Positions 1,945-56,235 of a DNA stretch of 64,000 nucleotides are shown piece after piece. The DNA lies in the NCBI GenBank assembly GCA_964016885.1, contig OZ024740.1, positions 199,082,001-199,146,000 of the forward strand, given 5' to 3'. The first letter of the stretch is position 1; the number at the start of each line of letters is the position of its first letter. A program made the position numbers and the translations under genes. The notes beneath the pieces are model-generated. The model was not told where the DNA came from. It did no database searches and worked only from the letters and a program-made list of their open reading frames with translations. The stretch comes from Eledone cirrhosa (taxonomy: Eukaryota).

Positions 1945-2610
1945 TAAAAAAAACATAATACACGAGTGTGTGTTTATCAATGTACAGGGAAAACCACCAG
2001 TGCATGGAATCTATAAACTAAGAAAGGTGAGGTAGATGCATAATAATAAAAAATAAAAAAATCCCAATGAATTTTCCCACCTTTATAACTATATATCACA
2101 AACGTACACACTCAAAGAGATTAGTATCGCCAAAAGATTAGTGTATGGAATGAAACAACCGGGTTCATCAGCGTGCACGTTAAGGGAATACATTCCAGAC
2201 AACTCTAAGAGAACTTAAGATAGCCGCCTTGTAACACGTAGTAGAGAGAAGGAAATGTGTGCATGGGACAGTAAAGTAGTGGGTTGTGTGGGATGATCCG
2301 CTAGAAAACCGCTAGCCGGTTATCTTAAGTTCTCTTAGAGTTGTGTGGAATGTATTCACTTAACATGCACGCAGATAAACCTACGTGTTTCATTCCATAA
2401 ACTAATCCTTTGGCGAAACAAATCTCTGAGTTTGTACGTGTGCGATATATAGTTATAAAGGTTGGTAAATTCATTGTGATTTATATTTTCCATCATTATG
2501 CATCTAACTCACATTTCTTGTTTTATAGATTCCATACTTCCATACACTGGTGGTTTTCCCTGTACATTGATAAACACACACTTTTTCTCGTGTATTATCT
2601 TTTCTATATA
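1945..2610. mobile_element. Non-coding foldback element; two diverged inverted arms, each with a decayed hammerhead motif
   Basis: About 1945-2230 is the reverse complement of about 2313-2610, with an ~80 bp spacer. Left arm keeps CTGATGA (TCATCAG 2165-2171); right arm keeps GAAAC...GTA (2415-2436). Confidence 0.75.
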
Positions 2611-2650
2611 TCGCTCGTATACAGGCCATTTATCGCTCGTGTACAGGAAA

Positions 2651-2746
2651 CTGACTGGCCAGGTTGCTGATATGCAAATCTGGCTGATCAGTGGATCTGC
2701 TAATATGCAGATCTAACTGATCAGCCAGTCTGCTAATATGCAAATT
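2651..2746. repeat. ~33 bp minisatellite, 3 copies, with octamer-like motifs
   Basis: Units end in tgctgatATGCAAAT, tgctaatATGCAGAT and tgctaatATGCAAAT. Confidence 0.7.
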
Positions 2747-2819
2747 AGGCCGGTCAGTCACTGTGTATTTATGAAAATAGCATATATTTTAACAAGGTCT
2801 GACAGTTTGGCAGGTGAAC

Positions 2820-3010
2820 AGTGAGCTGTACTGATGAAGGGTGATAACCAGAAAAATTAGTGTCTGCAATTCTGTACACATGCCAACACAAGAGCAAGAA
2901 TGAAGGGTTCAATCTACTAACATGGCTATAAAATTGAGGGTTGTTTGCATAATTGCAAACGAATCGAATGTTATTATTAATATTCGAAAAACTCAGATTA
3001 TCTTTATTGT
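2820..3010 (+). mobile_element. pLTR-like fragment with decayed hammerhead; second copy at ~55505-55665
   Basis: ctgta CTGATGA agggtgataacca GAAA aattagtg TC tgca (2826-2868). The downstream atgccaacacaagagcaagaatga...gtttgcataatt is shared with 55540-55660. Confidence 0.6.
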
Positions 3011-3088
3011 ATCCAGCAATGTAGAGCGAACATTTTCTTTTGTATATATATATATATACACACACTCACACACATATATTATATATAT

Positions 3089-3200
3089 GAGCTCAGCCGT
3101 CGGGGTCCTACTCGTTCCTATTACCCACTCTACTACCCTAAGTATTGAGTACTTTGGTGCGTTATGCTCCACTTGGTTCCTTACCACATTTCCTTCGTTA
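3089..3200 (+). mobile_element. Solo 3'-terminal fragment of a pLTR-like family embedded in (TA)n
   Basis: gagctcagccgtcggggtc...ccacatttccttcgt|TATATA. The same terminus occurs at 4830-4942, 5310-5420 and reversed at 47739-47797. Confidence 0.7.
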
Positions 3201-3419
3201 TATATATATACATATATATATATATATATATATATATATATATATATATATATATATATATATATATATATATATATATATATATATATATATATATAGA
3301 ATGATTAAGTATCGAGAGAGAGAAAAATAGAAAGATAGGTGATACATATATTTAGTTGCCAATAGTTTATGCACATGTGCTCAATACTCGTACCTACAGG
3401 TTTAAATATTAAAGGCGTC

Positions 3420-53065: not shown

Positions 53066-53103
53066 CCTTTTGAAAAGCAGAAGAACTGCGAAACCGGTAA
53101 AGG
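53066..53103 (+). ncRNA. Minimal hammerhead, U3-A8 variant (38 nt)
   Basis: cctt TTGAAAA gcag aagaa ctgc GAAA ccgg TA aagg; palindromic stem III ACCGGT. Confidence 0.75.
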
Positions 53104-53189
53104 AACCAAATAAATATATATATATTTTTAAAAAATAAGACTCCAGTTGCATTTTCGATTTCATCTCTTTTTCTTTAAACTAACTAAAC

Positions 53190-54425
53190 ACTAACAAAGG
53201 AACACTCTACTAGTTTCAAGCTTATTAGCTATCGTCAGCAACGTATACCTTCCTGCCAGATTGTTGAACGTATATACTTACCTTATGCATATTAACGGCT
53301 GAGTTGCCCAATTTGCATATCGAGTGGGTTAATCAGGAAGGTATACGTTGCTGACGATAGCTAATAAGCTTGAAACTAGTAGAGTGTTCCTTTGTTAGTG
53401 TTGAACAAACGAGCAACGAAGGTTGCTAGACACTACGGCTTAATACGGGATGTTTGTTTACAAACACACCGAGCATTATAATAAATGTTCGGTGAATTCA
53501 TACGTACATATATATATATGGGTGCATGTATGTATATATATATACATACTACTGTACGTCTGTATACATATATGTATGTACGTGTAAATACTTATATTTA
53601 AGTAACAGCCGTACTAAGAGTGGGAAATGAAATTCCGTTTATCGTTTTCGGTGCACTCGGCCGATTAACCAACTCGATATGCAAATTGGGCTACTCAGCC
53701 ATTAATATGCATAAGGAAAGTATATACGTTCAACAATCTGGGAGGAAGGTATACGTTGCTGACGATAGCTAATAAGCTTGAAACTAGTACAGCGTCCCTT
53801 TGTCAGTGTTGAACAAACGAGCAACGATGGTTGCTAGACACTACGGCTTAATACGGGATGTTTGTTTACAAAAACAGCGAGCATTATAATAAATGTTCGG
53901 TGAATCCATACGTACATATATATATGTGTGCATGTATGTATATATATATACATACTACTGTACGTCTGTATACATATATGTATGTACGTGTACATACTTA
54001 TATTTAAGTAACATCCGTACTAAGAGTGGGAAATGAAATTTCGTTTCATTTTTTCTGTTTATCGTTTTCGGTGCACTCGGCCGATTAACCCACTCGATAT
54101 GCAAATAGGGCTACTCAGCCGTTAATATACATAAGGTAAGTATATACGTTCAGCAATCTGGCAGGAAGGTATACGTTGCTGACGACAGCTAATAAGCTTG
54201 AAACTAGTACAGGGTCCCTCTGTCAGTGTTGATCAAACGAGCAACGATGGCTGCTAGACACTACGGATTAATACGGGATCTTTGTTTATAAACACACCGA
54301 GCATTATAATAAATGTTCGGTGAATCCATACGTACATAAATATATGTGCGCATGTATGTATATATATATATACATACTACTGTACGTCTGTATACATATA
54401 TTTATGTACGTGTACATACTTATAT
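53190..54425 (+). mobile_element. Retrozyme-like tandem array, 408-420 bp unit (~2.6 copies), with an inverted 5' fragment
   Basis: CTGACGA at 53351, 53759 and 54179; inverted HHR-containing copy at 53190-53334; no meaningful ORF; ends in (TA)n. Confidence 0.85.
53753..53795 (+). ncRNA. Minimal type I hammerhead (best copy of the array; others at 53345, 54173 and reversed at 53203-53244)
   Basis: acgttg CTGACGA t agct aata agct t GAAA ctag TA cagcgt: 6 bp stem I, palindromic stem III ACTAGT, GUA triplet. Confidence 0.8.
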
Positions 54426-54435
54426 ATATATATAT

Positions 54436-55045
54436 ATAATGAGCGGAACAAGTAAACATTAAACAATGTTTCAAATAAATTAAAATACGATTTAAATATT
54501 CACCTGTTCTAATGCAGTTACCGACGGCTTCGCTTATCAAAAGATTAGAAATTCAGAGAATTTTCAATAGAAAGAATCAACTCTTCAGACAGCTATTTCC
54601 ATTCTGTAGGGCATAAAGCCTCACAGTTTGTAAATATATCGCTTTCTGCCCGATGTATGAGGTCAGTCCGTTAACGTGACTCACACATAAACAGGCCGCG
54701 AGTAAAATCGGGAATATTATAGACTCGTTGTTTTTCATGCTACTAAAAACACATAAACAAACCGGGAGTAAAAGCGGGAATATTATAAACTCGCTGTTTT
54801 TTCTGCTACGGCCTGACATCATACATCGGGCAGGAAGCGATATATTTACAAACTGCGAGTCTTTATGCCCTATATAATGTAAATAGCTGTCTGAAGAGCT
54901 GATTCTTTCCATAGGAATTTCTCTGAATTCCAATCTTTTGATAAGCGAAACCGTCGGTAACACATTAGAACAGGTGAACATTTAAATCGTATTTTCATTT
55001 ATTTAAATTATTGTTTAATGTTTACTTGTTCCGCTCATTTTTATA
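54436..55045. mobile_element. Non-coding foldback with an HHR in each ~235 bp arm
   Basis: 54436-54670 mirrors 54808-55040; right arm tgt CTGAAGA gc...gc GAAA ccgtcgg TA aca (54888-54962); left-arm core has GAAG; the spacer holds a ~62 bp direct repeat. Confidence 0.82.
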
Positions 55046-55704
55046 GTTCTGGTATCTCAAATTAGTACCATTGAACAACAATTATTATAGACACCATATA
55101 TATTTCCGTACGTACTTAGTACCTGTTGGAATATTTATATCATTTTATATATATATATATATATATATATATATATATATATATATATATATATATATAT
55201 GTACAAATTATTTGCTCACGCGAAGTACTCATATTACGGTAAGTGCAGTGGAAGATTGTGAGGAAATGAGGAAGTATTAGGCTGACATATATCTGGATAG
55301 TACTATAGTACATGCCGTTGATACACACGCAAACGCACACCCACTCACAAACACACACACGCACACACACACACACACACATAATTATATATATTAGAAA
55401 AGGTTATCGCTCTATATGGCTGAATACAATAAATGTAATATGAGTTTTTCTAATATCAATAATAATACTCGATACGTTTGCAATTATGCAAACAAGCTTC
55501 TTTTAAGCCATGGATGAAGGATAATCATCCAGAATCATTAGTGTCTGCAGTTCTGTTTACATGCCAACACAAGAGCAAGAATGATGGTATAAAATAGGCT
55601 TGTTTGCATAATTACAAACGAATCGAATATTATTATTAATATTCCAAATAAATCAGATTAAATTTATATATATATATATATATATATATATATATATATA
55701 TATA

Positions 55705-56235
55705 ATCTATCAAAAGGACAGGAGGGAAAGAAAAGAAAAAGAGAAAAAAAAGAGAAAAAAACAGAAGAATAGAGAAAGTAGTGAGGAGAGAAGAAGAAAG
55801 ACAAAAAAATGAGTTAAACAGACCGAATTTAGGGAAACTGAGGACAATGGAACATGCAAGTGAGTAACCGAGGAAAAAATAGAATAGAATAAGTTTCGGT
55901 TCGTTATAACTTATTCTATTTTAATTTTTCCTCGGTTACTCACTTGCATGTTCCGTTTTCCTGTGTCGCTCCTCCATTCGGTCTGTTTACCTCGTTTTCT
56001 ATATTTCTTCCTCCCTCCTCACTACTTTCCCTTTTCTTTTTTTTTTTTTTTTCTTTCGCTCCTGGTCTATTGATCTATAAAAGGCCTTGGGCGCGTCGGT
56101 GATCGCTTTTGATGTCCTGTTTTAAACGCCAAAACATATATGATGTACGGTTAACAGCTGATGAAGGATTTCTATTGTTTCGTCCATATTACCATCTTAA
56201 ACTCAAACAGCTCCTTTCCTTTCTTGTAATTTTGT
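55705..56235. mobile_element. Foldback between (TA)n tracts; right arm extended and carrying CTGATGAAGGA
   Basis: ggaacatgcaagtgagtaaccgaggaaaaa...tagaataagtt mirrors aacttattcta...tttttcctcggttactcacttgcatgttcc around 55895; arms extend ~180 bp. Confidence 0.7.

Follow-up and report, generated by a model that had tools for sequence, protein, structure and literature searches.

The closest described counterparts of the units analyzed here are the inverted pLTR insertions of Penelope-like elements (PLEs), for which a head-to-head layout and a one-sided tail have been described previously (PMC8557442, PMC3846280), so that the architecture itself is not new. How tandem and inverted PLE insertions form has been named an open problem (PMC8557442), and the published mechanisms are either self-priming on an antisense template (PMC3846280), which is the only proposal that we found, or endonuclease resolution (PMC8557442). 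In the part of the Anolis Poseidon study considered here (PMC11167929), a PLE protein cuts and extends both target strands in vitro, reverse transcription begins at two start sites that bracket the tail, a dimer is predicted, and there is no start-site difference between the strands in bulk.

Head-to-head units of the window

The window is a 64,000-nucleotide stretch of the Eledone cirrhosa genome (contig OZ024740.1), in which a sequence-only reading had listed 11 foldback units with both 3' ends facing outward. When the masked window was compared with itself (unmasked self-BLAST was swamped by (TA)n), all 11 places turned out to contain an inverted repeat, with the canonical layout in eight units and a different one in three. 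The head-to-head units are real; in the four coding units, both 3' ends point outward when read from the ORF strand, and the view of these units as 5'-truncated PLE copies, joined head to head and only mimicking TIR elements, is borne out. The arms differ by 0–13% (substitutions): 11.6% in 1945–2610, 7.4% in 5215–5420, 2.0% in 10427–16301, 6.8% in 18985–19503, 3.4% in 19522–23168, 7.6% in 38318–39425, 5.2% in 44312–47367, 9.1% in 54436–55045 and 13.4% in 55705–56235, with 0% in the inverted arms of 5491–6616 (over 91 bp) and 53190–54425 (over 68 bp).

Each family has two fixed 3' ends, one with a tail of 55–170 bp (T) and one without (n), and both adjoin (TA)n. The one-sided tail had been overlooked in three units, the true extents of which are therefore about 1848–2611, 10427–16397 and 54436–55146. 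The coding features are as follows.

10427–13390, minus strand: left arm of family A (Hydra-clade PLE), truncated at the 5' side within the RT, 3' end of the n type (no tail) in (TA)n (ORF 11412–12908, arm alignment)
13379–13412: family A junction, a short hairpin followed by templated filler in place of about 85 bp of the right arm (from the sequence)
13412–16300, plus strand: right arm of family A, with part of the RT, a C-terminal GIY-YIG-type EN, the 3' UTR and the pLTR (ORFs 13402–14109 and 14076–15305)
16301–16397, plus strand: family A tail (T end), on the right arm only (end context)
16196–16271, plus strand: type I hammerhead motif in the family A pLTR, predicted cut before 16263 (own motif scan)
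core at 10520, predicted cut at 10465, minus strand: mirror hammerhead in the left arm of family A (own motif scan)
18654–18930: family B unit absent from the earlier list, a tail-only arm joined to an n arm without inverted overlap
19519–23168: family C PLE foldback, long n arm on the left (minus strand), short T arm on the right (22483–23113), tail to 23168
38314–39425: family B PLE foldback, n arm on the left, T arm on the right, tail at 39390–39425
44312–47367: family B PLE foldback, long n arm on the left (minus strand, to 46501), T arm on the right (46502–47308), tail to 47367

Assembly errors or long-read fold-back artefacts could yield the pairs of arms that are 100% identical (5486 and 53187), but nine units have arms differing by 2–13%, the ends are asymmetric, and the joints between opposite strands in family A (16139 to 16303 and to 16367), as well as many joints of U2 n arms to tails, are present in short-read contigs and raw reads from other samples. 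The probability of an artefact is therefore negligible.

Coding families and non-coding units

In families A, B and C, RT and GIY-YIG endonuclease are encoded in one ORF, as in EN+ PLEs, and all three display a pLTR derived from a partial tandem, 5' truncation and an optional tail. The EN is C-terminal in all three, so that the Naiad type, defined by an N-terminal GIY-YIG, was rejected. A Pfam search returned no match to the RT or EN of family A, and the RT motifs and the divergent EN were recognized by eye in the translation; a sequence search for a relative with a solved structure found none. In the family B unit at 44312–47367, Pfam matches GIY-YIG on both arms, and the family C GIY-YIG region resembles the family B EN region at 53–56%. 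For families B and C, a possible Neptune/Nematis type was considered, and a putative CX2-5CxxC linker upstream of the C-terminal GIY-YIG was read by eye in 44708–45202.

Family A was assigned to the Hydra clade by motifs, using the criteria in section 11 of PMC8557442. Its translation (14076–15305) contains the CxCx5C linker, lacks CCHH, and has CxxC and CxH flanking the end of the C-terminal EN; the hammerhead is canonical and the target is (TA)n. The full-length copy L080 contains DKT and RWI. Compared by description, family A resembles Hydra-clade PLEs in all these features but differs in having RWI where RWK is expected and a unit of about 3.57 kb, against the published 'generally <3 kb'. 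In full-length copies, the family A tail equals the beginning of the following tandem unit, and the junction filler was judged against upstream family sequence in loci L058 and L082.

The family A hammerhead is absent among the 150 of 201 Rfam matches listed for the window, which include only sub-threshold miRNA-like hairpins. In about six tailed arms of family A, and also in L279, truncations cluster at −28 to −38 from the hammerhead cut, for which cleavage, or pausing of the RT at the stem, may be responsible. An RNA search with one stretch (family A) listed no RNA dataset.

The remaining units are non-coding, and one further element joins two families.

1848–2611: U1, pLTR-type foldback, T arm on the left (tail about 1848–1945), n arm on the right, degenerate hammerhead motif
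3300–4940: heterologous head-to-head element, Hydra-type family E arm (minus strand, T end at 3300) and U2-family arm (plus strand)
5216–5420: U2, n arm on the left, T arm on the right (tail 5344–5420), 3' half of a hammerhead motif
5486–6612: U3, very young non-coding 591-bp tandem unit with fixed ends (tandem comparison)
18985–19503: inverted piece of family D (420-bp tandem unit), both ends away from the fixed ends of the family
53187–54425: family D tandem, n end on the right, 148-bp inverted piece with a non-canonical end on the left
54436–55146: U6, n arm on the left, T arm on the right (tail 55046–55146), type I hammerhead motif at about 54885–54965
55705–56235: U7, 37-bp tail on the right arm (T end of the family); the left arm ends about 130 bp before reaching the n end

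Two of these had been taken for plain foldbacks and are not: 5491–6616 consists mostly of 591-bp units in head-to-tail tandem, plus a short inverted arm, and 53190–54425 is a 420-bp tandem with the 148-bp inverted piece, which shows no difference from the adjacent unit over 68 bp. In U3, the short left arm stops at one fixed end (the equivalent of 6192), and the right arm (1.75 units) at the other. The units at 18985–19503, 53190–54425 and 55705–56235 are not clean examples because at least one outer end lies off any fixed family end. The sense strand of 5491–6616, of the 420-bp family and of 55705–56235 was assigned from fixed TA-flanked ends rather than from an ORF or ribozyme.

The hammerhead motifs, which are degenerate in the window copies, and the T/n ends identify U1, U2 and U6 as PLE pLTR derivatives. 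U3 and D consist of tandem non-coding monomers, as do non-LTR retrozymes; a type I hammerhead per unit was found in neither by our own scan or by Rfam (on L183 and L207), and Rfam on five family loci gave a single weak hammerhead match, outside the unit. The fold z of U3 is −6.6. We found no coding parent adjoining the U1, U3, U6, U7 or D loci, and none for the U1/U2/U6 type. The arms of the two-family element are joined by 4-bp microhomology at 4818–4821; among 15 unexplained 5' junctions, no second two-family join was established, and a short piece followed by TA lies directly after two of them.

The terminal inverted arms adjoining TA might suggest MITEs or foldback DNA transposons, but arm lengths and centers vary in every copy, the two ends of a unit are unlike each other, many copies have one arm only or form tandems, and U1, U2 and U6 carry hammerhead motifs. 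Fixed symmetric termini with a fixed interior are lacking in U1, U3, U6 and D, for which the MITE, TIR and foldback transposon classes were rejected; as an explanation of the non-coding units, this one is scarcely credible.

Tail rule, arm kinship and possible routes of formation

In the genome, neighboring copies within 6 kb face outward versus inward in ratios of 24:0 (family A), 26:2 (B) and 20:2 (C), with a chance expectation per class of 0.1 for A and 0.7 for B; for A and B, the sample was the first 100 exact matches to the 3' end on contig C1. That inversion is the dominant outcome, as had been proposed, holds for young family A copies (42 of 52 consecutive loci, about 80% of those sampled) and family B (16/24, about 67%) but not for the 591-bp U3 family, where it accounts for about half (19/38). 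Three families alone yield about 31,000 exact 3'-end matches in the genome, with 22,806 for family B and 6243 for family C.

Across four families, 82 of the 85 automatically scored foldbacks have one T arm and one n arm (A 34/35, B 25/26, U3 17/17, D 6/7), as do 6/6 pairs in family C and, by eye, 9/9 in U6. The exceptions are two T/T cases (L035 and L164) and one doubtful n/n case (L225). Single ends split about equally, with 11 T and 14 n among 25 in family C and 9 and 10 among U3 solos. The sequence-only reading missed the asymmetry of the arms, only one of which bears the tail, an outcome that plain symmetric priming from both ends would not yield. Of its two suggested routes, priming from both ends of a break in (TA)n is compatible with the data, whereas plain snap-back fails in 27 of the 59 family A and B cases.

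With moderate confidence, we interpret these elements as PLE insertions in (TA)n with arms from one source and two fixed ends, in which both target ends likely prime reverse transcription, one at each of the two start sites on either side of the tail and probably with a single RNA as template. A dimer sitting on one tail module would use each start site once; both cDNAs would terminate early, and their 3' ends would anneal and, after repair, give the head-to-head join. Priming by a single target end would leave a solo copy with either end, and short non-coding tandem RNAs (U3 and D) and pLTR-only RNAs would borrow the PLE enzymes in trans. Where the tailed arm is the longer one, a single RNA would require strand displacement past the other cDNA, a hypothetical step.

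The expectation that an arm resembles its partner more than it does a random copy is confirmed (mean percentile 0.26, n = 37, p = 1.7e-5, and 0.10, n = 24, p = 2e-5). In the window copy of family A, the partner is not in the top 42 matches over 467 bp, and the notion that arms are no closer than random, rejected here, fails family-wide. Both arms belong to the same subfamily in 10/10 long pairs, with rare variants in common, and L290 has one private variant in register in both arms; in U3, a count by eye gave one private variant common to both arms in register and about 15 that are not shared. At the family D locus L207, the haplotypes of the outer units differ between the two arms.

Dual priming with a separate transcript for each arm, both from one active source locus, or with two different units of one multimeric transcript, would accommodate the L207 haplotypes, which are out of register, the two-family join at 3300–4940, the equal cDNA lengths of the arms and the tailed arm being longer as often as shorter in family B; the templates are also head-to-tail multimers with several tail modules. 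This route leaves the T/n rule unexplained, given that the (TA)n target is symmetric, would demand that one source be active at a time to explain the shared subfamilies, and sits poorly with the in-register variant of L290, so that we regard it as unlikely.

The arms are variably 5'-truncated, with a junction position that varies from copy to copy and mostly 1–4 bp of microhomology or short templated filler at the junction. The tailed arm is shorter or tail-only in 18/34 family A and 9/25 family B foldbacks (without partner overlap in six and one, respectively) and longer in 5/34 and 13/25, the latter breaking a 'follower RT' rule under which it would always be shorter; 11/34 family A foldbacks have near-equal arms, several of them at short palindromes. 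T-arm and n-arm cDNA lengths do not differ in A or B, as would also be expected of two independent RNAs, which counts against the one-RNA reading.

Each arm contains sequence absent from its partner in the 27 of 59 coding-family cases mentioned above, seven of which have no overlap at all. Such arms cannot be made by snap-back of a target-anchored cDNA, where the second arm must fall inside the first; the argument fails for the tandem families because long arms contain whole units. Self-priming or snap-back of cDNA or antisense RNA into a two-tailed hairpin, with the endonuclease cutting the n site of one arm and the T site of the other, would fit the shared subfamilies and rare variants, the near-identical, near-symmetric cases (L054, 0.08%; L156, 0.2%), the hairpin and templated filler at junctions and the 68-bp identity at 53187, and PMC8557442 ascribes the tail to endonuclease resolution. 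To rescue it, however, a hypothetical free intermediate and a hypothetical asymmetric cut are required, which agree badly with the target-primed starts at both sites in vitro in the part of PMC11167929 considered here; the mostly unshared private variants of U3 also speak against it, although later mutation would explain these as well. We consider this route distinctly unlikely. Observations that count against two-ended priming on one RNA are the near-equal family A arms, explained equally by snap-back, the L207 haplotype mismatch, the T/T cases, the doubtful n/n case and the in vitro result that, in bulk, the strands show no preference between start sites (PMC11167929).

Host repair, by fold-back and center deletion of solo insertions that became palindromic later, or by gene conversion homogenizing the arms, would match the center deletion with filler at 13379–13412, the patchy arm differences of the window family A copy and the non-canonical ends of three window units. 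It cannot provide a tail that the first arm lacked and does not account for arm ends placed exactly at family sites, and T/n foldbacks are already seen in U3 copies with 99–100% identity to one another, which makes it very unlikely. An empty-site test via collinear flanks gave 0/70 among the examined loci; the ends lie in (TA)n, with no readable target duplication.

A wider version of two-ended priming is offered tentatively, as a possibility: twin priming could be the default mode of PLE integration, in which a dimer would hold one RNA tail, cut both (TA)n strands, start at both fixed sites and displace its own cDNA, and might thereby spread ribozyme-less tandem RNAs of 591 and 420 nt, copied round and round, fuse cDNAs of two families and seed thousands of hairpins in a single genome. 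The T/n rule and the tail-only arms provide a link between the inverted layout and what the considered part of the Poseidon study describes in vitro, namely two start sites and two-strand extension, and two-ended initiation gives a sharp single-molecule prediction for that existing assay. If true, PLE products would make up many of the palindromes called 'MITE-like' or 'unknown' in animal genomes rich in (TA)n; the end matches of the three families already represent a large source of hairpins in this genome.

Comparison with known systems

The published inverted pLTR insertions of PLEs (PMC8557442, PMC3846280) resemble those described here in the 5'-truncated inverted copy at the 5' end, partial tandems, the tail on one end, (TA)n targets and junction palindromes. 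Here, a near-obligate T/n rule is quantified in five or more families, the tails are 55–170 bp long against 30–40 in published PLEs, and there are also tail-only arms and arms from the same source. The target of Anolis Poseidon is likewise AT-rich, and the part of that study considered here (PMC11167929) draws no link to inverted insertions.

Non-LTR retrozymes (10.64898/2026.07.22.740005) are short non-coding tandem units thought to be mobilized by PLEs, and U3 and D are similarly tandem, structured and TA-targeted, but differ in that no hammerhead was found in them and in their fixed T and n ends and frequent foldbacks. In twin or dual priming of L1 (PMC2837659), the second target strand primes a second cDNA, producing a microhomology-joined inversion; the inverted pieces here are likewise joined by microhomology with both outer ends at the target, and the tail-only arms share the non-overlapping geometry of L1. 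The L1 pieces do not overlap and their second site varies, whereas here there is one fixed site, the arms usually overlap by 0.1–3 kb, and inversion is the majority outcome.

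Foldback units in the window and their abundance

Self-comparison of the window, which is AT-rich and contains dozens of (TA)n tracts, with microsatellites masked, recovered inverted repeats at all 11 places listed in the sequence-only reading, with arm-to-arm differences of 0–13%, and the ORFs of the four coding units diverge to either side, as expected of outward-facing 3' ends. Three families of Penelope-like elements (PLEs) are represented among these foldbacks (A–E, U1–U7, T and n are labels coined in the present analysis):

10427–16397, family A foldback with Hydra-clade motifs, as given in PMC8557442
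At 38314, 44312 and 18654, family B units, Pfam GIY-YIG
At 19519, family C foldback, related to family B

In 8 of the 11 units, one arm has a fixed tail-less 3' end (n) and the other passes through a tail (T) to a TA tract; in the units at 18985, 53187 and 55705, at least one end is not a family end. For other PLE pieces (17741–18153, 23720–24550, 26790–27640, 50390–51920, 57066–59404 and 62596–64000), self-comparison shows no inverted counterpart; they are solo, interrupted or extend past the window edge. The window also holds older short inverted repeats outside the earlier list (9385–9649, 35284–35750, 55438–55658 and 26344–26397) and two SINE-like dispersed families of about 200 bp (8069–8260, 25386–25576, 31430–31628 and 41017–41446; 1600–1808 with 33156–33364). 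Two Hydra-type families carry asparagine-rich stretches between RT and EN (14640–14880 and 58760–58930), recalling the N-rich inserts described in PMC3846280.

Across the 3.0-Gb assembly that contains the window's contig, exact 3'-end patterns, which are biased to young copies, match 2449 (A), 22806 (B) and 6243 (C) times. Among the first 100 matches listed per family, outward and inward neighbors within 6 kb number 24:0, 26:2 and 20:2, respectively. For family A, the sample took in every one of the 52 consecutive loci to 107.3 Mb together with 8 more pairs, giving 60 of the 75 listed loci; for family B, it took in all 26 pairs plus 14 stretches that span the remaining matches to 5.77 Mb. Inspection by eye found a head-to-head junction in 42 of 52 loci for A and 16 of 24 for B, with the second arm interrupted and the outer end hence not readable in 7 and 2 of these; sampling slightly favors two-armed loci, and a rough correction gives about 79% inverted for A. 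For U3, a non-coding 591-bp tandem unit, foldbacks make up 19 of the 38 top-scoring loci (7 duplicate loci removed).

Outer ends and kinship of partner arms

Outer ends were scored by script in complete foldbacks, that is, 35 of 61 A, 26 of 42 B, 17 of 38 U3 and 7 of 22 stretches of D (a 420-bp tandem unit), the other stretches being solo, interrupted or missed owing to mismatches. The two ends are of different types (T/n) in 34/35 A, 25/26 B, 17/17 U3 and 6/7 D foldbacks, the exceptions being two T/T and one doubtful n/n. Single ends use T and n about equally, so that independent choice would yield mixed pairs in half of the cases. The U3 "tail" is simply the shorter interval (~170 bp), as assigned by us, and the mixed-end rule is independent of that label. 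All six family C pairs (among 25 ends) are T/n as well, and so, by eye, are all nine copies of the non-coding family U6 that show both ends, out of 22 distinct loci; one copy of U1 (L137) appears to be T/T.

To check for assembly artifacts, joints were sought in other samples, in their short-read contigs and raw reads. The family A opposite-strand joint 16139/16303 was present in four of four runs, in few reads, and 16139/16367 in one run; joints from the n arm to the tail of U2 were numerous.

Over matched intervals, partner arms are nearer to each other than to other copies (mean percentile 0.26 for A, 37 of 40 pairs with enough overlap; 0.10 for B, 24 of 29 pairs). Clear subfamilies emerge when the variants of 58 long A arms are tabulated, and both arms share a group in 10 of 10 pairs, the window's own pair belonging to a large, marker-poor group; many A pairs also have common variants otherwise present in two or fewer other arms. 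From these percentiles, subfamily agreement and common rare variants, it follows that the arms are closer than random family members, in accord with the sequence-only reading. U3 haplotypes also agree between arms. The residual differences (up to 4% in A, with one 68-bp overlap at 10%, and up to 7% in B) are mostly private, as expected with age.

Arm content, junctions and templates

If a target-anchored cDNA folded back, the second arm would be contained in the first, an argument not applicable to tandem families. Each arm contains sequence missing from its partner in 18 of 34 A and 9 of 25 B foldbacks: the tail is absent from the long arm, and the 5' part of the long arm is absent from the tailed one, a pattern that fits two cDNAs rather than one folded. 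Seven tailed arms in the A and B set consist of the tail alone, as does one arm of the unit at 18654–18930 in the window. The tailed arm is longer in 18 and about equal in 14 foldbacks, which fit either two cDNAs or a folded one. We regard snap-back with asymmetric resolution as quite improbable.

Junctions mostly show 1–4 bp of microhomology or short templated filler. At 3300–4940, Hydra-type family E and the non-coding U2 are joined head to head via a 4-bp microhomology (4818–4821), with both 3' ends in TA; this join could also result from a later deletion between neighbors.

Family A has a strong truncation hotspot at 16139 (−161), and many copies consist of the 161-bp pLTR alone, with or without the tail, often running on into TA-like letters, which suggests a short non-autonomous source. 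Comparable hotspots lie near −250 in B and near 363 bp in U1. Several tailed A arms stop at, or just 3' of, a hammerhead cut (16263) predicted from our motif scan and consensus rules rather than a curated model. Elsewhere in the genome, a tandem of a 481-bp unit that begins at the predicted cut (L279:1375–1990) is possibly a nascent retrozyme. In vitro work has found the main template to be uncleaved RNA.

A variable piece of another unit lies upstream of full-length A copies (30 loci), so the template RNA is a head-to-tail multimer, with the tail formed by the beginning of the following unit, in agreement with PMC11167929. U3 copies are 99–100% identical, and one arm can hold an array of up to about five units. 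The family (window 5486–6612; L181–L205, L286–L305) is very young, structured (z −6.6) and non-coding; both of its fixed ends are flanked by TA, and no ribozyme was detected. Its layout is shared by an older relative (80%) at 6777–7029. In D (window 53334–54425), the fixed ends are 56 bp apart, and two arrays (L214, L216) show exact ABAB alternation of two unit variants, as would result if a template of two units, possibly a circle, were copied repeatedly. One private variant lies in register on both arms of L290, and the outer units of L207 differ in haplotype, so that these copies point both ways between one RNA and two; we lean slightly toward one RNA and consider two unlikely.

Probable two-ended priming and known systems

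Priming from both target ends, whether on one RNA or two, is the probable origin of the foldbacks. Each target end would take one start site, both cDNAs would truncate and repair would join them head to head. For another PLE in vitro, PMC11167929 reports that both strands are cut and extended and that reverse transcription begins at two sites bracketing the tail, with a dimer predicted. Self-priming on an antisense template has been proposed for PLEs (PMC3846280); for L1, PMC2837659 describes both twin priming and dual priming.

The foldbacks are real, largely as first read, and their architecture is not itself new: PMC8557442 and PMC3846280 already describe PLEs with a head-to-head layout, a bias to (TA)n and a tail on one side. 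Among the titles and abstract openings covered, with most subscription papers outside that set, among them older PLE reviews that may treat the subject, we found no link between PLE inversion and twin priming and no T/n count. Compared with these known systems, the near-obligate T/n pairing, the tail-only arms and the same-source arms are new, and they open the PLE mechanism to testing.
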